DNA from: a virus
Lineage: Duplodnaviria > Heunggongvirae > Uroviricota > Caudoviricetes
DNA: 12,446 bases
Virus record (IMG/VR): IMGVR_UViG_2875718163_000001
Span: 1 to 12,446 of that record
Reading direction: 5' to 3' (one strand)
The position numbers and the translations under genes are program-made. Below, piece after piece: positions 1,963 through 12,446 of this stretch. The notes beneath the pieces are model-generated. The model was not told the origin of the DNA. It did not search any database and was given only the letters and a program-made list of their open reading frames with translations. How positions within the stretch are numbered: position 1 is the stretch's first letter; each line of letters starts with the position of its first letter.

Positions 1963-2390
1963 TGATCTTACCCAGCAATAGTGGACACGCGGCTAAGTGA
2001 GTAAACTCTCAGTCAGAGGTGACTCACATGACAAAAACAGTATCAACCAGTAAAAAACCCCGTAAACAGCATTCGCCTGAATTTCGCAGTGAAGCCCTGA
2101 AGCTTGCTGAACGCATCGGTGTTACTGCCGCAGCCCGTGAACTCAGCCTGTATGAATCACAACTCTACAACTGGCGCAGTAAACAGCAAAACTTTCATTC
2201 GCTGAAAGTGGAATGTATCCATGGAGAACACTTTATCAGCCGGGAAATAATGCGGGCAACGGTGTTTAATTATATCGAATGTGATTACAATCGGTGGCGG
2301 CGGCACAGTTGGTGTGGCGGCCTCAGTCCGGAACAATTTGAAAACAAGAACCTCGCTTAGGCCTGTGTCCATATTACGTGGGTAGGATCA
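1963..2390 (+). mobile_element. IS3-family element with a large internal deletion (428 bp retained), both terminal inverted repeats present
   Basis: Left end TGATCTTACCCAGCAATAGTGGACAC; right end reverse-complements to TGATCCTACCCACGTAATATGGACAC (imperfect terminal IRs). Internal ORF is IS3 OrfA N-terminus fused to OrfB C-terminus. Flanking triplets are ATC (1960-1962) and ACC (2391-2393), so a clean 3-bp target duplication is not seen. Confidence 0.88.
2028..2360 (+). pseudogene. In-frame fusion of IS3 OrfA N-terminus (HTH region) to the last ~50 aa of the OrfB transposase; catalytic domain absent
   Basis: [55 protein letters not shown] | [55 protein letters not shown]; junction near 2190-2193. 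Track ORF starts at an upstream GTG (2019); ATG at 2028 is the IS3 orfA start. Confidence 0.65.
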
Positions 2391-2670
2391 ACCAGCATAA
2401 ATCAGGCTGCGGCTAAAATGGCGCGGGCAGGAATCCTGGTCGTTGATGGTAAGGTCTGGCGAACGGTGTATTACCGGTTCGCTACCAGAGAAGAATGGGA
2501 AGGAAAGGTGAGCACGAATCTGATTTTTAAGGAGTGTCGCCAGAGTGCCGCGATGAAACGGGTATTGAGGGTATATAAAAGAACATCAATGGGAACACAA
2601 TGATGAAACAGGTGAGTTGAGTTCAAACTGTAGTACAATTCTCTCCAGTTTGAACAGGAAAGAATATGCT

Positions 2671-3003
2671 ATGAACCCTTATATTTATCTTGGTGGTGCA
2701 ATACTTGCAGAGGTCATTGGTACAACCTTAATGAAGTTTTCAGAAGGTTTTACACGGTTATGGCCATCTGTTGGTACAATTATTTGTTATTGTGCATCAT
2801 TCTGGTTATTAGCTCAGACGCTGGCTTATATTCCTACAGGGATTGCTTATGCTATCTGGTCAGGAGTCGGTATTGTCCTGATTAGCTTACTGTCATGGGG
2901 ATTTTTCGGCCAACGGCTGGACCTGCCAGCCATTATAGGCATGATGTTGATTTGTGCCGGTGTGTTGATTATTAATTTATTGTCACGAAGCACACCACAT
3001 TAA
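2671..3003 (+). CDS. emrE: Small multidrug resistance (SMR) efflux transporter EmrE
   Basis: 110-aa ORF MNPYIYLGGAILAEVIGTTLMKFSEGFTRLWPSVGTIICYCASFWLLAQTLAYIPTGIAYAIWSGVGIVLISLLSWGFFGQRLDLPAIIGMMLICAGVLIINLLSRSTPH, recognised as EmrE. Four hydrophobic helices with the conserved membrane Glu (..LAEVIG..). AGGA 12 nt upstream of ATG 2671; the track ORF from 2617 is an upstream extension. Confidence 0.93.
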   Translation: MNPYIYLGGAILAEVIGTTLMKFSEGFTRLWPSVGTIICYCASFWLLAQTLAYIPTGIAYAIWSGVGIVLISLLSWGFFGQRLDLPAIIGMMLICAGVLIINLLSRSTPH

Positions 3004-3033
3004 AATAATTTGTTTCTAAACGACTAAAATATG

Positions 3034-3074
3034 GAGGCTCTTATATTTATATGAGCCTCGTTTTATGCTTTTTG
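3034..3074 (+). terminator. Probable intrinsic terminator after emrE
   Basis: GAGGCTC (3034-3040) / GAGCCTC (3053-3059) perfect 7-bp stem with a 12-nt loop, followed by GTTTTATGCTTTTTG, 30 nt after the emrE stop. Confidence 0.5.
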
Positions 3075-3257
3075 TTAATGTCTTTATTTTTTATGTATTC
3101 TTTTGTGCTTTCAAGATTATGGCGTAAGAAAATTGCAATACGATTATTGTTGTATATTCAAGATAATGTGACCTTAATTGTCTTTTTAAATAAAAAATAA
3201 ACAAAAATTATATCCCACCACTAAGGTTTATAAAAGCATACGTTAGCAGGTGTCACC

Positions 3258-4784
3258 ATGAAAAAAGCCATAGCATATATGCGATTTTCATCACCAGGTC
3301 AGATGTCTGGCGACTCATTAAACCGACAGAGAAGACTTATTGCTGAATGGTTAAAGGTAAATAGTGATTATTATCTTGATACCATAACATATGAAGATTT
3401 AGGATTAAGTGCATTCAAAGGAAAGCATGCACAATCAGGAGCTTTTTCGGAATTTTTAGATGCTATAGAGCATGGTTATATATTGCCAGGAACTACATTG
3501 TTAGTTGAAAGTCTGGACAGACTTTCAAGAGAAAAAGTCGGTGAAGCGATTGAACGTCTGAAATTGATTTTGAATCACGGTATTGATGTTATAACTCTTT
3601 GCGACAATACAGTCTATAATATTGACTCTTTGAATGAGCCATATTCATTAATAAAAGCCATACTTATAGCACAAAGGGCAAATGAAGAAAGCGAGATAAA
3701 GTCAAGTCGGGTTAAATTATCATGGAAGAAAAAACGGCAGGATGCACTGGAATCAGGTACGATTATGACGGCGTCTTGTCCGAGATGGCTCTCCTTAGAT
3801 GACAAAAGAACGGCTTTTGTTCCAGACCCCGACAGGGTGAAAACTATTGAGCTAATTTTTAAACTCAGGATGGAAAGGCGCTCATTGAATGCAATAGCCA
3901 AGTATTTAAATGATCATGCTGTAAAGAATTTCTCAGGAAAAGAAAGTGCATGGGGACCTTCTGTAATTGAAAAATTATTAGCGAATAAAGCTCTGATAGG
4001 TATTTGCGTACCTTCATATCGTGCAAGAGGGAAAGGGATAAGTGAAATCGCTGGCTATTATCCCAGAGTCATATCAGATGATTTGTTTTACGCTGTACAG
4101 GAAATTCGGTTGGCACCTTTTGGTATTAGCAATAGTAGCAAGAATCCTATGCTAATAAATCTACTTCGAACAGTTATGAAGTGTGAGGCTTGTGGTAATA
4201 CCATGATTGTTCATGCGGTATCTGGAAGTTTGCATGGCTATTATGTTTGTCCGATGAGAAGATTACATCGATGTGACAGGCCATCAATAAAAAGAGATTT
4301 GGTTGATTATAATATCATTAATGAATTGCTTTTTAATTGTAGCAAAATTCAACCAGTTGAAAACAAGAAAGATGCTAATGAAACTTTAGAGTTAAAAATT
4401 ATTGAGCTTCAGATGAAAATTAATAATTTAATCGTTGCATTGTCTGTCGCGCCTGAAGTTACCGCTATAGCAGAGAAAATAAGACTATTAGATAAGGAAT
4501 TACGAAGGGCTTCGGTATCATTGAAAACTTTGAAGAGTAAAGGTGTAAATTCATTCAGTGATTTTTATGCTATTGACTTAACCAGTAAAAATGGACGAGA
4601 GTTATGCCGTACACTTGCCTATAAAACATTCGAAAAAATCATAATTAATACGGATAATAAAACCTGTGATATCTATTTTATGAATGGCATTGTTTTTAAA
4701 CACTATCCTTTAATGAAAGTAATATCCGCCCAGCAGGCGATAAGTGCTCTCAAATATATGGTTGATGGTGAGATTTATTTCTAA
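3258..4784 (+). CDS. ybcK: Large serine recombinase (resolvase catalytic domain + recombinase domain + zinc ribbon + coiled-coil tail)
   Basis: 508-aa ORF. N-terminal AIAYMRFSSPGQ (nucleophilic Ser context) and ..VESLDRLSR.. resolvase motifs; Cys cluster CEACGN...C..C..HRC; C-terminal Leu/Ile-rich heptad-like stretch. Visibly AT-rich codon usage unlike flanking phage genes. AGGTG 6 nt upstream of ATG. Confidence 0.9.
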   Translation: MKKAIAYMRFSSPGQMSGDSLNRQRRLIAEWLKVNSDYYLDTITYEDLGLSAFKGKHAQSGAFSEFLDAIEHGYILPGTTLLVESLDRLSREKVGEAIERLKLILNHGIDVITLCDNTVYNIDSLNEPYSLIKAILIAQRANEESEIKSSRVKLSWKKKRQDALESGTIMTASCPRWLSLDDKRTAFVPDPDRVKTIELIFKLRMERRSLNAIAKYLNDHAVKNFSGKESAWGPSVIEKLLANKALIGICVPSYRARGKGISEIAGYYPRVISDDLFYAVQEIRLAPFGISNSSKNPMLINLLRTVMKCEACGNTMIVHAVSGSLHGYYVCPMRRLHRCDRPSIKRDLVDYNIINELLFNCSKIQPVENKKDANETLELKIIELQMKINNLIVALSVAPEVTAIAEKIRLLDKELRRASVSLKTLKSKGVNSFSDFYAIDLTSKNGRELCRTLAYKTFEKIIINTDNKTCDIYFMNGIVFKHYPLMKVISAQQAISALKYMVDGEIYF

Positions 4785-4982
4785 ATAATGATCTCGGATT
4801 TTAAGTTATGCTATGGTGATAAAGTGCAAGACAGAATTAATTATCTTTGACGAAACTTAATGGGTAATTACTTTGTTTGCTCCCACAAGCGAGTTTTGTA
4901 CGGCTGTATTGGGGTAGTAAATGAGCTATACAATCTTAATCATTTGTTAGGTGAGAACTCTTGGTCGCAGATTCAAATACTG

Positions 4983-5032
4983 AAAATACGTGACAAATTA
5001 TTATGAGCAAAATGGTGTATGTCACGTATTTT
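4983..5032. repeat. Perfect 13-bp inverted repeat with 24-bp spacer (AAAATACGTGACA / TGTCACGTATTTT)
   Basis: Arms at 4983-4995 and 5020-5032 are exact reverse complements; read directly from the sequence. Lies ~200 bp downstream of ybcK and ~215 bp upstream of ybcL. Confidence 0.85.
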
Positions 5033-5248
5033 GAATGGTAGGTTAAAAAATAACACCGACTTTCGTAGGTGTTACTAATAATAAAGCAGAGTTTTTAGAT
5101 AGTATCAATGTGCTTTGTGTATATTGTGGCAAATAATTGGGTTGGGGGTACAATTGTGATTGCTTTTGCATGAACATTGCGCCTTTATGCATAATGAGAT
5201 AAAGGAATATCAAATAAAATAACGATAGGTCATAACAAAGAGGTTTTT

Positions 5249-5800
5249 ATGAAAACACTTATCGTTTCAACTGTATTGGCATTCATAACATTTTCTGCGC
5301 AGGCTGCAGCATTTCAGGTCACTAGTAATGAAATAAAAACAGGAGAGCAACTTACAACGTCTCATGTCTTTTCTGGATTTGGGTGTGAAGGTGGTAATAC
5401 ATCGCCCTCATTAACCTGGTCTGGTGTTCCTGAAGGTACCAAAAGCTTTGCCGTAACTGTATATGATCCAGATGCACCTACAGGCAGTGGTTGGTGGCAT
5501 TGGACTGTTGTTAATATTCCAGCAACAGTAACATATTTGCCCGTTGATGCAGGGAGACGTGATGGAACAAAACTGCCGACTGGTGCTGTTCAAGGCCGAA
5601 ATGATTTTGGCTATGCTGGGTTTGGTGGCGCATGTCCTCCTAAAGGAGATAAACCACATCATTACCAGTTTAAAGTATGGGCTCTAAAAACTGAAAAGAT
5701 TCCTGTAGATTCTAACTCCAGCGGAGCGTTAGTTGGTTATATGCTTAATGCTAATAAAATCGCAACCGCTGAGATAACACCAGTTTATGAGATAAAGTAG
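5249..5800 (+). CDS. ybcL: Periplasmic PEBP/RKIP-family protein (phosphatidylethanolamine-binding protein homologue)
   Basis: 183-aa ORF with signal peptide MKTLIVSTVLAFITFSAQA and PEBP signature VYDPDAPTGSGWWHWTVVNIP...GYAGFGGACPP..HHY. GAGG 5 nt upstream of ATG. Confidence 0.9.
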   Translation: MKTLIVSTVLAFITFSAQAAAFQVTSNEIKTGEQLTTSHVFSGFGCEGGNTSPSLTWSGVPEGTKSFAVTVYDPDAPTGSGWWHWTVVNIPATVTYLPVDAGRRDGTKLPTGAVQGRNDFGYAGFGGACPPKGDKPHHYQFKVWALKTEKIPVDSNSSGALVGYMLNANKIATAEITPVYEIK

Positions 5801-5809
5801 GGTGAGAGT

Positions 5810-6607
5810 ATGCTGGCAAGAGGTAAGACTAACTTAAAGATCGAAGAAATACGGATGCATAAACATCATGAGATTCATAGGGTTAAGCCTCTTATGCCAG
5901 CTTTGTGTCGTATCCGTCAGGGAAAGAAAGTTATCAATTGGGAGACGCATACTTTAACTGTTGATAATAATCAAATAATATTATTTCCTTGTGGTTATGA
6001 ATTTTATATTGAGAATTATCCTGAAGCAGGGCTTTATCTTGCAGAAATGCTTTACTTACCCATTGATTTAATTGAGAGTTTCCAAAAACTTTATACGGTA
6101 ACTGATCAAATACGTAACAAAACAAGTTTCTTTTTACCTCAGAATCCTGAGTTAATATATTGTTGGGAGCAACTAAAAACATCTGTTTCCCGAGGCTTCT
6201 CAACTAAAATTCAGGAGCACTTAGCAATGGGCGTTCTACTTTCGTTAGGAGTGAATCATGTTAATCATTTACTTTTATCATATAGTAAACAATCATTGAT
6301 AAGTCGTTGTTATAACCTGCTGCTATCCGAACCCGGCACAAAATGGACAGCAAACAAGGTTGCTCGATATCTCTACATTTCTGTTTCTACATTACATCGC
6401 CGTCTAGCAAGCGAGGGGGTAAGTTTCCAAAGTATACTGGACGATGTGAGGTTAAATAATGCGTTGTCTGCTATACAAACGACGGTAAAACCTATAAGCG
6501 AGATTGCCAGAGAAAATGGTTATAAGTGTCCTTCTCGTTTTACTGAAAGATTTCATAATCGTTTTAATATAACACCAAGAGAGATAAGAAAAGCTTCCAG
6601 AGAGTAA
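5810..6607 (+). CDS. ybcM: AraC/XylS-family transcriptional regulator
   Basis: 265-aa ORF with C-terminal double-HTH AraC domain (..[44 protein letters not shown]...[25 protein letters not shown]). Starts 9 nt after the ybcL stop, so probably co-transcribed. Confidence 0.88.
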
Positions 6608-6671
6608 AAGTGTTTTAAGAAGGAGCAATTCTATCGATTTTGATTTTGGGAAATCAACACGGCATAATTAT

Positions 6672-6700
6672 GTCACCGGAGCCTGAACAACTCCGGTGAC
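6672..6700 (+). terminator. Strong hairpin (10-bp perfect stem GTCACCGGAG / CTCCGGTGAC, 9-nt loop); possible terminator or boundary element
   Basis: Read directly. Lies 65 nt after the ybcM stop and ~120 nt before the NinB-like gene, where lambda places tR2. The trailing sequence TTCTGCGCT is only weakly U-rich, so the intrinsic-terminator call is uncertain. Confidence 0.4.
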
Positions 6701-6723
6701 TTCTGCGCTAAACGGGGACGTTT

Positions 6724-6825
6724 ATGCGCACATACAATCCAAACTCTCTTCTCCCTTCACAGATGCAGAAATGCACCTGCAATTCTTTGCATCTAGCGTT
6801 TGACCTCTGCGGAGGGGAAGCGTGA
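6724..6825 (+). CDS. ylcH: Small ORF (33 aa) immediately upstream of and overlapping ybcN start
   Basis: ATG 6724 ... TGA 6823-6825 encodes [33 protein letters not shown]; its stop overlaps the ybcN GTG (GTGA). Matches the size and position I recall for ylcH; no independent coding support. Confidence 0.3.
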
Positions 6826-7277
6826 ACCTCTCACAAGACGGCATCAAATTACATCGCGGCAACTTCACCGCTATCGGTCGGCAGATCCAGCCTTATCTGG
6901 AGGAGGGCAAATGCTTTCGCATGGTGCTTAAACCGTGGCGTGAGAAACGCAGTCTTTCCCAGAATGCACTCAGCCACATGTGGTACAGCGAAATCAGTGA
7001 ATACCTCATCAGCAGGGGTAAAACGTTCGCCACTCCAGCTTGGGTAAAAGATGCTCTCAAACACACATATCTCGGTTATGAAACCAAAGACCTGGTTGAT
7101 GTCGTAACCGGTGATATCACCACTATCCAGTCGTTACGCCATACCTCCGATCTTGATACCGGAGAGATGTATGTCTTCCTGTGTAAGGTTGAAGCCTGGG
7201 CGATGAATATTGGTTGCCACCTGACTATTCCACAGAGCTGCGAGTTCCAGCTGCTGCGCGACAAGCAGGAGGCGTAA
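6822..7277 (+). CDS. ybcN: NinB-like (lambda Orf/NinB family) recombination-associated protein
   Basis: 151-aa ORF with GTG start preceded by GGAGGGG. Motif ..[18 protein letters not shown].. resembles the lambda NinB ..RSLDQN..LW.. region. First gene of a tightly overlapped nin-type operon. Confidence 0.85.
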
Positions 7278-8944: not shown

Positions 8945-9095
8945 AGGGAAGGTGCGAATAAGCGGGGAAATTCTTCTCGGCTGACTCAGTCATTTCATTT
9001 CTTCATGTTTGAGCCGATTTTTTCTCCCGTAAATGCCTTGAATCAGCCTATTTAGACCGTTTCTTCGCCATTTAAGGCGTTATCCCCAGTTTTTA

Positions 9096-9395
9096 GTGAG
9101 ATCTCTCCCACTGACGTATCATTTGGTCCGCCCGAAACAGGTTGGAAAAAATGCCAGAGACTCCGCTGAAGTGGTGGAAACCGCATTCTGTACTTTCGTG
9201 CTGTCGCGGATCGCAGGTGAAATTGCCAGTATTCTCGACGGGATCCCCCTGTCGGTGCAGCGGCGTTTTCCGGAACTGGAAAACCGACATGTTGATTTCC
9301 TGAAACGGGATATCATCAAAGCCATGAACAAAGCAGCCGCGCTGGATGAACTGATACCGGGGTTGCTGAGTGAATATATCGAACAGTCAGGTTAA
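9096..9395 (+). pseudogene. nohD: C-terminal fragment of terminase small subunit Nu1; N-terminal DNA-binding half missing
   Basis: From ~9147 the ORF reads [82 protein letters not shown], recalled as the lambda Nu1 C-terminus. Upstream codons are unrelated and the frame is closed by TAG at 9093-9095. The 26-nt overlap with the following A start is as in lambda. Confidence 0.75.
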
Positions 9396-10113
9396 CAGGC
9401 TGCGGCATTTTGTCCGCGCCGGGCTTCGCTCACTGTTCAGGCCGGAGCCACAGACCGCCGTTGAATGGGCGGATGCTAATTACTATCTCCCGAAAGAATC
9501 CGCATACCAGGAAGGGCGCTGGGAAACACTGCCCTTTCAGCGGGCCATCATGAATGCGATGGGCAGCGACTACATCCGTGAGGTGAATGTGGTGAAGTCT
9601 GCCCGTGTCGGTTATTCCAAAATGCTGCTGGGTGTTTATGCCTACTTTATAGAGCATAAGCAGCGCAACACCCTTATTCCAGCTGGCTTCGTGGCTGTTT
9701 TCAACAGTGATGAGTCATCGTGGCATCTCGTTGAAGATCATCGGGGTAAAACGGTTTATGACGTGGCTTCCGGCAACGCGTTATTTATTTCTGAACTCGG
9801 TCCGTTACCGGAAAATGTTACCTGGTTATCGCCGGAAGGGGAGTTTCAGAAGTGGAACGGTACAGCCTGGGTGAAAGATGCAGAAGCAGAAAAACTGTTC
9901 CGGATTCGGGAGGCGGAAGAAACAAAAAACAGCCTGATGCAGGTAGCCAGTGAGCATATTGCGCCACTTCAGGATGCTGTAGATCTGGAAATCGCAACGG
10001 AGGAAGAAACCTCATTGCTGGAAGCCTGGAAAAAATATCGGGTGTTGCTGAACCGTGTTGATACATCAACTGCACCTGATATTGAGTGGCCTACGAACCC
10101 TGTCAGGGAGTAA
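9370..10113 (+). pseudogene. tfaD: Chimeric ORF: terminase large subunit A N-terminus (~103 aa) fused in frame to the C-terminal ~145 aa of a tail-fibre assembly protein (Tfa)
   Basis: [33 protein letters not shown]...[12 protein letters not shown] is lambda gpA as I recall it. From [29 protein letters not shown]... to ...[13 protein letters not shown] is Tfa family. Junction at about 9678/9679. Confidence 0.8.
9949..10089 (+). repeat. Direct repeat copy 1 (~141 bp, Tfa C-terminal coding segment)
   Basis: AGTGAGCATATTGCGCCACTTCAGGATGCTGTAGATCTGGAAATCGCAACGGAGGAAGAA... recurs at 10996-11136 with scattered substitutions. Confidence 0.8.
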
Positions 10114-10127
10114 TCATTGGGATTATG

Positions 10128-10177
10128 CCGCAGCACGTCTTAAGCAAGAACATGCTGCGGTTGGATGCTATTTTTTT
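10128..10177. terminator. Hairpin between convergent genes (possible bidirectional terminator)
   Basis: CCGCAGCA (10128-10135) / TGCTGCGG (10153-10160) 8-bp stem with a 17-nt loop, followed by a T7 run at 10171-10177. Located between the Tfa-fusion stop and the ybcY stop. Confidence 0.4.
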
Positions 10178-10752
10178 CCTGAAGCGGAAAACATTACTAC
10201 AGTACCTTGAACCTTGGTTTTAACATTCTCGAAATGCTCTGAGAGTATATGTGTTAAGCCTTCTTCGGAATCTTTTGTGTTTGAAAAGATGCCTTTCTGA
10301 TTGTAAATGCGCATCAGTTTTTGACCGAAGCTATTGTGCACAACTCCATCGCCAAGAATTGTGGCTCCGTATAGAGTTCCATCGTCAGTTAAGGCCTGCG
10401 CCGCATTGCGTATTACACAGCTTTTTGTAGATATATTTCCAGGCAGGCAGTGAAGAAGGTAAGACATGGAAATGGAATCAAATTGACCATGTAACGCCGC
10501 GGGATAAGGTTCAAAAACATCATGGCTAATTTTATGTTTAATTTTTGATTCCCCAGCCCTTGTAGATGCCGCGTTCAGGCTAGCTTCGTTCAAATCCATT
10601 AAAGATATCAGACTACTCTCAGGTACGTGAGTAAGGTAAAACCCAGTTCCAACACCAATATCCAGATGGTTGTTACCTAAATGTTCCAGAAAGTGTGGAA
10701 GAAGGTGTTCCTTTGTAGGACATCCCCATGCAAGCCGATTTGATACTCCCAA
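10168..10752 (-). pseudogene. ybcY: Class I SAM-dependent methyltransferase, apparently lacking its native start
   Basis: 194-aa minus ORF with SAM motif ..HLDIGVGTGFY... The frame stays open 23 codons upstream to a stop with no ATG or GTG; the only in-frame start is the TTG taken by the track. Suggests N-terminal truncation. Confidence 0.7.
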
Positions 10753-10890
10753 AACCCACCAGTCATAAAGCTTTAGGGTAAGTGGTGTGTAAATTCTAGC
10801 CCCATCATCTGTGTTTTTTTATTAATTTCACCATGTTATAGTTTTATTTGTGAATTAAATCAATTATGGCAATGAATTACAAGGGGTTAA

Positions 10891-11151
10891 ATGCTGCCGC
10901 AGCATAGCGATATTGAAATAGCCTGGTATGCTTCAATACAGCAGGAGCCGAATGGCTGGAAGACCGTCACCACACAGTTCTACATCCAGGAATTCAGTGA
11001 GTATATTGCGCCACTGCAGGATGCTGTAGATCTGGAAATCGCAACGGAGGAAGAAAGATCGTTGCTGGAAGCCTGAAAAAAGTATCGGGTGCTGCTAAAC
11101 CGTGTGGACACTTCCGTAGCACCAGATATCGAGTGGCTTATTCAACCATAA
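10891..11151 (+). pseudogene. tfaX: Tail-fibre assembly (Tfa)-like gene with in-frame premature stop
   Basis: [64 protein letters not shown](11074-11076)[24 protein letters not shown]. The stop sits where copy 1 has TGG (Trp in ..LEAWKKY..). AAGGGG upstream of the ATG. Confidence 0.7.
10996..11136 (+). repeat. Direct repeat copy 2 (~141 bp, Tfa C-terminal coding segment)
   Basis: See copy 1 (9949-10089). Carries the TGG->TGA difference at 11074-11076. Confidence 0.8.
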
Positions 11152-11696
11152 TAAACAGTATGTATATCATAGGTTATTAATTGTGAGTTTTTTCGGTGTG
11201 TTATTTGTTTGTTTGATGTTATGCTTTTGCGCCCCAAAAGGTTGTTTAGATGTATTTTATCAATTGATTTTCAATATCGTTTAATAAAGAAAAATTAAGC
11301 AAGCTGGATGTTGGTTTTTTGTTAATTGAATGGTTCTAATAATGTTTTTTTACTGTTGTTGAATGTGACTTGATAAGAAATGCAAGTAAAAATGATACTC
11401 TTTTTATTTTAAATTCAAACGGTTGACATATATATAGCAAGAGGTTTCAGGTGCGTTGTAGTGAGTTTATGTTAATAAAAAGCATAGTAAGCGTTGAAAA
11501 ATGTAACTTTGAAATAAGTTAGAATAAAAAACAACATACATATAATAATTTAATCTTAAATGAAATTTATTAAAATTTGCAAACTATAATTTTGTGTATA
11601 AAAATATAAATGCACATCATCCTGATTATGATTGTGTATTTAATTGGTTGTTATTTGACTACTATCAACTTGTTTTAATTTTATGATAGGTGCAAG

Positions 11697-12446
11697 ATGG
11701 ATTATGTTTGCTCCGTAGTTTTCATCTGTCAATCATTTGATTTAATTATAAACAGGAGAGTTATCTCGTTCAAAAAAAATTCATTGTTTATTGTAAGCGA
11801 CAAAATTAGAAGGGAGTTACCAGTATGCCCCTCTAAACTAAGAATTGTTGATATAGATAAGAAAACATGTTTATCCTTTTTTATCGACGTGAATAATGAG
11901 CTGCCTGGCAAATTTACTCTTGATAAGAATGGCTATATTGCTGAAGAGGAACCTCCATTATCGCTTGTTTTTTCTCTGTTTGAAGGGATTAAAATAGCAG
12001 ACTCACACTCCCTTTGGTTAAAAGAAAGACTATGTATATCCTTACTTGCCATGTTCAAAAAACGCGAAAGTGTAAATTCATTTATACTAACAAATATAAA
12101 TACATTTACCTGTAAAATTACTGGAATAATCAGTTTTAATATTGAGCGGCAATGGCATTTAAAAGATATTGCGGAATTGATTTATACGAGTGAAAGTTTA
12201 ATAAAAAAAAGATTAAGGGATGAAGGAACGTCATTTACTGAAATATTGAGAGATACTAGGATGAGGTATGCAAAAAAACTCATAACTTCAAACTCTTATT
12301 CTATCAATGTCGTAGCCCAGAAATGTGGCTATAACAGTACTTCATATTTCATATGTGCATTTAAAGATTATTATGGTGTCACGCCATCTCATTATTTTGA
12401 GAAAATAATCGGCGTCACAGATGGAATAAACAAAACAATTGACTGA
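11697..12446 (+). CDS. appY: AraC-family transcriptional activator AppY
   Basis: 249-aa [44 protein letters not shown]... with C-terminal AraC HTH (..[39 protein letters not shown]...[24 protein letters not shown]), recognised as AppY. AGGTG upstream of ATG; AT-rich, low-complexity codon usage; preceded by ~545 bp of very AT-rich DNA. Confidence 0.9.

Follow-up and report, generated by a model that had tools for sequence, protein, structure and literature searches.

Introduction

Large serine recombinases are often located at one end of the element that they move, and transposons of the Tn4451/Tn5397 type are expected to show conserved element ends and dinucleotide-flanked junctions. Lambdoid phages carry accessory genes known as morons (lambda bor and lom, or the PD-lambda-1 cassettes, for example), and P2/P4-type prophages reportedly harbor hotspots of variable, often antiviral genes (an observation attributed to Rousset et al.). 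Here, we consider a 12,446-nt stretch of viral DNA (IMG/VR record IMGVR_UViG_2875718163_000001, hereafter the window), which is the Escherichia coli K-12 prophage DLP12 from intD to appY (99.9-100% identity), and more particularly an AT-rich block of five genes, emrE-ylcJ-ybcK-ybcL-ybcM, that sits between a remnant of ren and orf33/ybcN (6724-7277) and includes the gene of a large serine recombinase, YbcK. These are already annotated DLP12 genes of K-12, and are thus already known. What does such a block represent, and does its recombinase move it? The block is probably accessory ('moron') cargo, lodged at a hotspot between ren and ninB in DLP12-like (Bievrevirus/lambda-like) phages, and assembled from separately exchangeable pieces by ordinary phage-phage recombination.

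A variable slot between ren and the nin operon

An earlier note on this DNA, made from its letters, had described an AT-rich block between the ren remnant and the nin genes, and its composition is indeed atypical: G+C content is 36.3% (2577-6638), against some 48-49% around it (48.8% in the left flank and 47.7% in the right one), and third codon positions of the cargo genes have a G+C content (GC3) of 0.26-0.35, compared with 0.50-0.60 for ybcN, ybcO and rusA. The note placed the edges of the block at 2604 and 6620; the block is real, and comparison with related phages shifts these edges to ~2568/2577 and 6638. In pairwise BLAST alignments, the homology of four phages (Perceval, PhiR30_1, PhiR5_1 and PhiR26_1) to the window stops at 2567-2576, inside the 3' end of ren, and resumes at exactly 6638/6639, a right junction that coincides with the -35 box of a putative promoter.

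At least five alternative cargos have been found between these two junctions. Perceval carries emrE-ybcK followed by a reverse alpha/beta hydrolase gene, PhiR26_1 carries PD-lambda-1 and Rha, other sister phages have either an acyltransferase with a lipoprotein or Rha with small open reading frames (ORFs), and one E. coli genome has an inverse autotransporter and a hydrolase in the same slot. Such variable content is the mark of a moron hotspot, as are atypical composition and autonomous transcription signals, represented here by the G+C and GC3 values, the ybcK and ybcL promoters and the emrE terminator. The earlier view of the block as a distinct exchangeable unit is thus borne out, since sister phages carry unrelated cargo between the same junctions. 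The entire block is present, at 99.4-99.5% identity, in the viable lambdoid phages PhiR34_1, PhiR68_2 and PhiR70_1, and the block or its ybcK half in the viable phages Perceval, 4A7 and others. With its junctions defined at the base-pair level, the ren/ninB slot could be mined for accessory or defence genes.

The region also bears the marks of repeated general recombination. In Perceval, what follows ybcK is first the 3' end left over from a Rha/P22AR-type gene, next 38 nt copied from the end of emrE, and then the hydrolase module. In PhiR26_1, the nin-leader sequence occurs twice (L005 3708-3862 and 5643-5800, 80% identity) around a recombinase-free, Rha-containing cassette, and this duplication resembles the scar of cassette stacking at a hotspot. 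In other prophages, defence-type genes lie in the same replication-to-nin interval, namely a gene for a SIR2_2-domain protein (L021 5755-7695) and PD-lambda-1 (PhiR26_1, L005 1963-3465). PADLOC defence models gave no match for any of the five DLP12 cargo proteins.

A patchwork of exchangeable pieces

When the block was searched against 5,426 complete E. coli genomes, the matches fell into three coverage classes. The full block (form B) is present in 671-675 genomes, and emrE-ylcJ-ybcK in 1,399, form B included, the remainder being forms C and D. About half of these 1,399 genomes have other cargo or none downstream of ybcK (~700 are without ybcL-ybcM): the hydrolase lies there in form C, the Perceval type, and nothing separates ybcK from the nin leader in form D, the O157:H7 type. 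An emrE-ybcL-ybcM arrangement of 1,957 bp without ybcK (form A) is found at 90-95% identity in ~2,300 genomes, according to identity bands. In all 1,399 genomes that have it, ybcK is accompanied by emrE on its left, always at the same site.

Compared with form A, the window contains a 2,083-bp indel (3011..5093, + strand) with 34% G+C, made of ylcJ, ybcK and a 309-bp tail. BLAST alignment of the window with a ybcK-less locus (L012) pairs 2595-3010 with 9001-9418, and 5094-6814 with 9423-11143, so that no more than 4 bases at the ybcK-less empty site lack a counterpart in the window. A three-way alignment shows forms B, C and D diverging from one another at ~4836-4850, shortly after the end of ybcK. 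E. coli LR-50 has an isolated 86-bp piece (NZ_AP025551.1 3395229-3395314) that equals window 4760-4845, that is, the last 25 bp of ybcK and the 61-bp tail, with no annotated gene; it is probably a deletion remnant.

The block is therefore a patchwork of at least three independently exchangeable pieces, each of them AT-rich: emrE with its leader hairpin, ylcJ-ybcK, and ybcL-ybcM. If anything, the nesting proposed in the earlier note is reversed, the ylcJ-ybcK piece being an indel inside an emrE-ybcL-ybcM array. These pieces would have been gained, lost and stacked through recombination between co-resident lambdoid phages, with conserved flanks (P/ren to the left; to the right, the nin promoter and leader from 6639) serving for homologous exchange, together with illegitimate joins at gene ends. 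Site-specific recombination by YbcK would not be required to account for the cargo pattern.

A fossil prophage beside fliE

Where does the ybcK-less form reside? In the three genomes inspected (L012, L175 and L176), form A adjoins fliE, the DNA from fliE to the islet matches a phage integrase region, and the islet begins within ren, of which it keeps the final 9 bp, and extends through the nin leader to window position 6814, a Q-region fragment coming next. The locus corresponds to 8734-11253 of L012, within the fliE-yedK interval, and in one strain (L176) an nmpC-like porin gene lies beside yedK. This locus is a fossil DLP12-like lambdoid prophage, from which it follows that a phage with emrE-ybcL-ybcM and without ybcK once existed.

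The ybcL gene is 97% identical to the fli-locus allele, and the ratio of nonsynonymous to synonymous substitution rates (dN/dS) for emrE, compared with the same locus, is 0.02. In the uropathogenic E. coli (UPEC) strain NU14, emrE matches only at the identity level of the ybcK-less form. The effect of YbcL on neutrophil migration, mentioned in the earlier note, is indeed stated in a review (PMC4810123). A large share of E. coli carries UPEC-type ybcL, with emrE and ybcM, in a fossil DLP12-like prophage beside fliE, so that a phage origin can be assigned to this virulence-associated allele.

An intact recombinase under purifying selection

The earlier note had read ybcK as an intact large serine recombinase gene with catalytic and zinc-ribbon motifs, and this holds on every count. 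Three Pfam domains are recognized in the protein, namely Resolvase (E 5.5e-19), Recombinase (191-284) and Zn_ribbon_recom (302-357). The translation reads YMRFSSPGQ around R9 and S11, ESLDRLSRE at 84-92, the zinc-ribbon cysteines C309, C312, C331 and C339, and a coiled-coil stretch at ~370-430; YbcK thus has both the catalytic domain and the Recombinase, zinc-ribbon and coiled-coil parts by which the family is defined. All of these features, among them the four cysteines, and the catalytic residues R9, S11, D87, R88 and R91 are invariant in a 17-member family alignment. YbcK matches the PHROG 95 integrase (E 4e-120), and the YbcK family profile matches residues 143-469 of SPbeta SprA, that is, its recombinase, zinc-ribbon and coiled-coil domains (RD-ZD-CC; E 2e-5); a direct phmmer search of YbcK against PDB chains gave no match, and SprA was reached by the family profile only.

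Among the DLP12, Perceval and O157 alleles, ybcK has a dN/dS of 0.07-0.16, compared with 0.02-0.12 for the other cargo genes (0.12 for ybcM), so that all cargo genes are under purifying selection. The 90% protein cluster of YbcK contains >6,000 sequences. Given this selection, the size of the cluster and its retention by viable phages, YbcK is very probably an active protein, as far as its sequence can tell. Its gene lies in the middle of the prophage, between ren and ninB, and away from either end; in DLP12 the gene found at the end is intD, and Perceval carries its own tyrosine Int and Xis besides ybcK. YbcK thus appears to be an orphan recombinase and a passenger gene, neither the integrase of its phage nor the mover of its neighbours, and its DNA substrate would lie elsewhere, or be of a kind not recognizable from sequence.

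Does YbcK move its neighbours?

Searches for direct and inverted repeats over 2300-7000 returned only short chance-level pairs, none of them bounding the block or the 2,083-bp piece, and no long inverted repeats, as would be expected of an invertible-segment switch, flank any gene of the block. Dyad symmetry at reconstructed attP, attB, attL and attR sites, for E. coli and three other loci of the family, is at the level of shuffled sequences, and no imperfect dyad of ~40-50 bp with a 2-bp core was found at the junctions. Local alignment of the empty-site sequence of the ybcK-less form with the ybcK tail is likewise no better than that of shuffles. Of the 675 full-block genomes, 671 match colinearly, in one place and on one strand, and hence no inversion isoforms were seen.

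Candidate signatures were considered and rejected. A palindrome at 4983-5032 was rejected as the YbcK site, since forms C and D have ybcK and lack this palindrome; its 13-24-13 architecture was found among viral contigs only in DLP12-like copies, or in matches without a nearby recombinase. Gene duplicates flanking the recombinase at four loci (L021, L039, L040 and L015) were considered as an 'icd-like' signature of target-restoring integration. This was discarded because the left fragment at L021 belongs to a separate extra cassette, absent from the close relative L024, and because PhiR26_1 shows the same scar without a recombinase. A junction-spanning match in strain C8, taken as a possible empty site of the block, turned out to be a chance match of 11-17 nt.

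YbcK relatives in other Enterobacterales

Full-length relatives of YbcK (42-61% identity) are confined to Enterobacterales, where they are lone genes in accessory positions of mobile elements that have mobility genes of their own. Some lie in nin regions, in Pantoea dispersa, Ca. Pantoea alvi and two Atlantibacter-type lambdoid prophages with their own tyrosine integrase or replication module. After the tail-fibre and assembly genes, the relative is the last gene beside host DNA in Atlantibacter, Ewingella, Erwinia and Yersinia, the respective records being DHIB01000016, JALCNN010000002, JAGGMP010000001 and DANMWH010000013; in Citrobacter, it lies in a plasmid-like or integrative and conjugative element-like region, beside a pilV-like gene. 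On islands and plasmids of Pantoea, Enterobacter and Pluralibacter, it comes with one particular tyrosine integrase: at four such loci (L031, L032, L034 and L035, two of them on plasmids), homologues of 42-43% identity lie 0.2-6 kb from this integrase, which is 61-89% identical among loci, with varying spacing and orientation.

The recombinase sits in a low-G+C stretch of ~2 kb at L006, L008 and L010; L011, from Pantoea, shows no such AT-richness. Of 24 family loci, 4 have the recombinase flanked on both sides by diverged, incomplete copies of a neighbouring gene. When a nin-region copy is compared with one at a tail end, homology is limited to the ORF and 68 bp upstream, and no conserved DNA was found next to the recombinase gene across genera, either upstream or downstream; it therefore seems to be the gene alone that travels.

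The surroundings of two relatives show repeats. In Citrobacter koseri (L015 9652-9826), about 19 tandem CTTGTTT heptamers, which could be a phase-variation tract, occur at the 5' end of a pilV/shufflon-like gene divergent from the YbcK homologue, with pieces of a second pilV-like gene on the opposite side of the recombinase. In Pantoea coffeiphila (L040), ORFs of 208, 89, 142 and 104 aa downstream of the YbcK homologue recur at 9740-10625 and 10991-11876, with an offset of 1,251 bp, in what resembles a tandem duplication of a gene set without Pfam match.

How was the block assembled?

The model of the earlier note, which makes YbcK the enzyme that mobilizes or inverts an element carrying ybcL-ybcM and/or emrE and ending at the two edge hairpins, drew on the presence of a large serine recombinase gene in an AT-rich block with hairpins near both edges. 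Comparative data have already largely refuted it, and we regard it as extremely unlikely. Both hairpins do fold better than shuffled sequences, as the note implied, yet they are unrelated in sequence, and neither is an end of the block. The right one (6672-6700) is conserved among phages with other cargo, and thus belongs to the backbone of the nin leader; the left one (2621-2655) belongs to the leader of emrE, which it accompanies in all forms A to D, including the ybcK-less fli-locus copy, where it falls within the 2595-3010 homology. The genes also part company: emrE-ybcL-ybcM is found without ybcK in the ~2,300 form A genomes, and ybcK without ybcL-ybcM in the ~700 of forms C and D, contrary to the claim that ybcK moves or inverts either set. 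Neither bounding repeats nor junction dyads were found, nor were inversion isoforms among the ~675 full-block genomes.

A smaller element, in which the 2.08-kb ylcJ-ybcK piece (3011-5093) is or was self-mobilising through its own recombinase, inserted between emrE and ybcL, and in which YbcK-family genes spread likewise, would account for the clean indel with its 4 unmatched bases, for the ~2-kb low-G+C stretch at three other loci, for the many unrelated contexts of the family, for the intact catalytic residues and the purifying selection on the gene, and for the neighbour-gene duplicates at 4 of 24 loci. We nevertheless consider it quite unlikely: ybcK never occurs apart from emrE or at another site in the 1,399 genomes, forms B, C and D have ~60 bp in common after the ybcK stop and therefore no common right end, dyad symmetry at candidate junctions does not exceed that of shuffles, and no family-wide conserved DNA lies beside the gene. 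As to the duplicates, that of L021 belongs to a separate cassette missing in L024, and that of PhiR26_1 flanks a cassette devoid of recombinase, while the 38-nt emrE-end repeat of Perceval covers both sides of the putative crossover at 3011. Alternatively, YbcK could act in trans on a site not adjacent to its gene (be it a second attachment site through which the phage could integrate by another route, a target on a rival element, or a locus of the host), and be kept because this activity benefits the carrier element. In its favour, phages already equipped with a tyrosine integrase keep the gene under strong purifying selection with its catalytic motifs intact, and the unit common to distant contexts is the bare gene with ~70 bp; a relative is the last phage gene before host DNA in four genera, as read from this end of the prophage, a position where an integrase could also sit. 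No candidate site was found, however, no PADLOC defence model matches, and ybcK is silenced by Rho and H-NS in K-12 (PMC3946193, PMC4150792), so that this explanation seems unlikely as well.

Moron cargo exchanged at the ren/ninB hotspot thus remains the preferred reading, and several points weigh against it. A chimeric query detected no precise empty ren|nin-leader junction in the 5,426 genomes, so that the genomes attest the replacement of cargo and offer no case in which the block as a whole was simply inserted or lost; the comparison with lambdoid phages advised in the earlier note thus yielded shared junctions, and neither a precise empty site nor an att-like core. The boundaries of the 2,083-bp indel are clean and intergenic, and would also fit a site-specific insertion. 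The form A count comes from identity bands and not from genome-by-genome inspection, the fliE position was checked in 3 genomes only, and the recombination mechanism is deduced from junction patterns. Above all, an intact, selected recombinase with no visible substrate is left unexplained by a model of passive cargo.

Could the YbcK family then consist of orphan large serine recombinases, which travel as bare genes through the accessory hotspots of Enterobacterales prophages, plasmids and islands, are selected, and act on a non-adjacent DNA site? We put this forward tentatively, and rather doubt it. Possible roles would be a hidden second integration route, the attack of a competing element, or a cryptic self-mobilising gene cassette. 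YbcK is an intact, conserved recombinase in the best-studied bacterium and is easy to test, and its action in trans, if true, would be an unusual use of the large serine recombinase class.

Features and transcription signals of the block

Gene calls rely on the RefSeq annotation carried over from the K-12 record and on Pfam scans (Table 1). The four cargo genes of the earlier note (emrE, ybcK, ybcL and ybcM) are all confirmed, and a fifth, ylcJ (3051-3200), had been missed; its peptide is very hydrophobic, has its own Pfam family, and always occurs with ybcK in the E. coli genomes searched. No Rfam match was obtained within 2300-7000 at E <= 1.

Table 1. Features of the emrE-ybcM block and its flanks (window coordinates)
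Feature	Position	Strand	Basis or remark
ren (renD) C-terminal remnant	2385..2603	+	K-12 record annotation
Hairpin upstream of the emrE ribosome-binding site	2621..2655	+	Inverted repeat; -13.4 kcal/mol, z -2.8
emrE, SMR multidrug efflux pump	2671..3003	+	Pfam Multi_Drug_Res, E 2e-35; PHROG 1395, category 'moron'
emrE terminator hairpin	3034..3059		-13.8 kcal/mol; overlaps ylcJ start
ylcJ, 49-aa hydrophobic ORF	3051..3200	+	RefSeq annotation; Pfam YlcJ, E 7e-36
ybcK, 508-aa large serine recombinase, intact	3258..4784	+	Pfam Resolvase + Recombinase + Zn_ribbon_recom
Short tail after ybcK	4785..4845	+	Common (diverged) to forms C and D; three-way alignment
Form-B-only tail	4846..5093	+	Found in 675 genomes, all form B
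Small hairpin in form-B tail	5051..5074		
ybcL promoter, GTGGCA-17-TACAAT	5127..5155	+	Genomic SELEX table (PMC3946193); consensus scan
ybcL, periplasmic PEBP/Raf-kinase-inhibitor-like protein	5249..5800	+	Pfam PBP, E 3e-42
ybcM, AraC-family regulator	5810..6607	+	Pfam HTH_18 and HTH_AraC
Conserved nin-operon leader (backbone, not cargo)	6639..6825	+	Holds putative promoter, inverted repeat and orf33
nin-leader inverted repeat	6672..6700		-18.3 kcal/mol, z -4.6
orf33	6724..6825		Within conserved nin-operon leader
ybcN	6822..7277		RefSeq annotation

In K-12, ybcK and ybcL have their own sigma-70 promoters, with upstream regions bound by H-NS (PMC3946193), and a Rho-dependent terminator in the 5' untranslated region of ybcK holds this gene down (PMC4150792). 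The ybcL promoter lies within the part common to the ybcK-less form. In the nin leader, a consensus scan returned a promoter-like match at 6640-6668, and a 1996 record of phage 82 annotates a putative promoter at the same place, together with a 'possible regulator-binding site' at the 6672-6700 repeat. The palindrome at 4983-5032 consists of two perfectly matched 13-bp arms around 24 nt of spacer, and folds as RNA at -18.7 kcal/mol (z -5.3). Located ~100 bp ahead of the ybcL promoter and restricted to full-block genomes, it could be an operator or a relic.

The window differs from the K-12 records at two places, both outside the emrE-ybcM block. A segment of 830 bp inside IS3 is missing, the join at 2191/2192 creating a fused 113-aa ORF at 2019-2360, and 6.3 kb are missing from inside IS5 to inside nohD (join 9145/9147), with the loss of nmpC, the lysis genes, bor, ybcV and ybcW. 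Among the best 20 genome matches listed, each needs 3-4 aligned pieces to cover the window. Either a genuine deletion derivative or the way in which the window was constructed could account for these gaps.

Comparison with known systems

YbcK shares its domain order, its catalytic Ser and Arg and a SprA profile match with the large serine phage integrases (SPbeta SprA, phiC31, Bxb1, A118/LI). Unlike these, ybcK does not lie at a prophage end and belongs to a phage with its own tyrosine Int/Xis, and no adjacent attP-like site, directionality-factor candidate or att junctions were found for it. As in Tn4451 and Tn5397 (with TnpX and TndX), a large serine recombinase resides within a different mobile element, where the unit that it moves might be a small one containing its own gene; the ends and junctions expected of such transposons were not found at ybcK, and the 1,399 E. 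coli genomes give no sign of recent ybcK movement.

The hotspots of P2/P4-type prophages are comparable in their fixed flanks and highly variable content, and in the occurrence of PD-lambda-1 in the slot of PhiR26_1. The slot differs from them in belonging to a lambdoid backbone, and in a DLP12 cargo of which no protein matches PADLOC. Lambdoid morons such as lambda bor and lom and the PD-lambda-1 cassettes offer a further parallel: as in these, AT-rich genes unrelated to phage growth lie between backbone genes, have promoters of their own (ybcK and ybcL), and give way, between the same junctions, to unrelated cassettes in sister phages. The DLP12 block nevertheless stacks three sub-modules instead of one gene, and contains a full-length site-specific recombinase, which is atypical for a moron. 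Since the block fits the long-standing picture of mosaic lambdoid genomes, nothing fundamental is changed by it: it is best described as an unremarkable mosaic of phage cargo, in which the item that deserves an experiment is the orphan recombinase.

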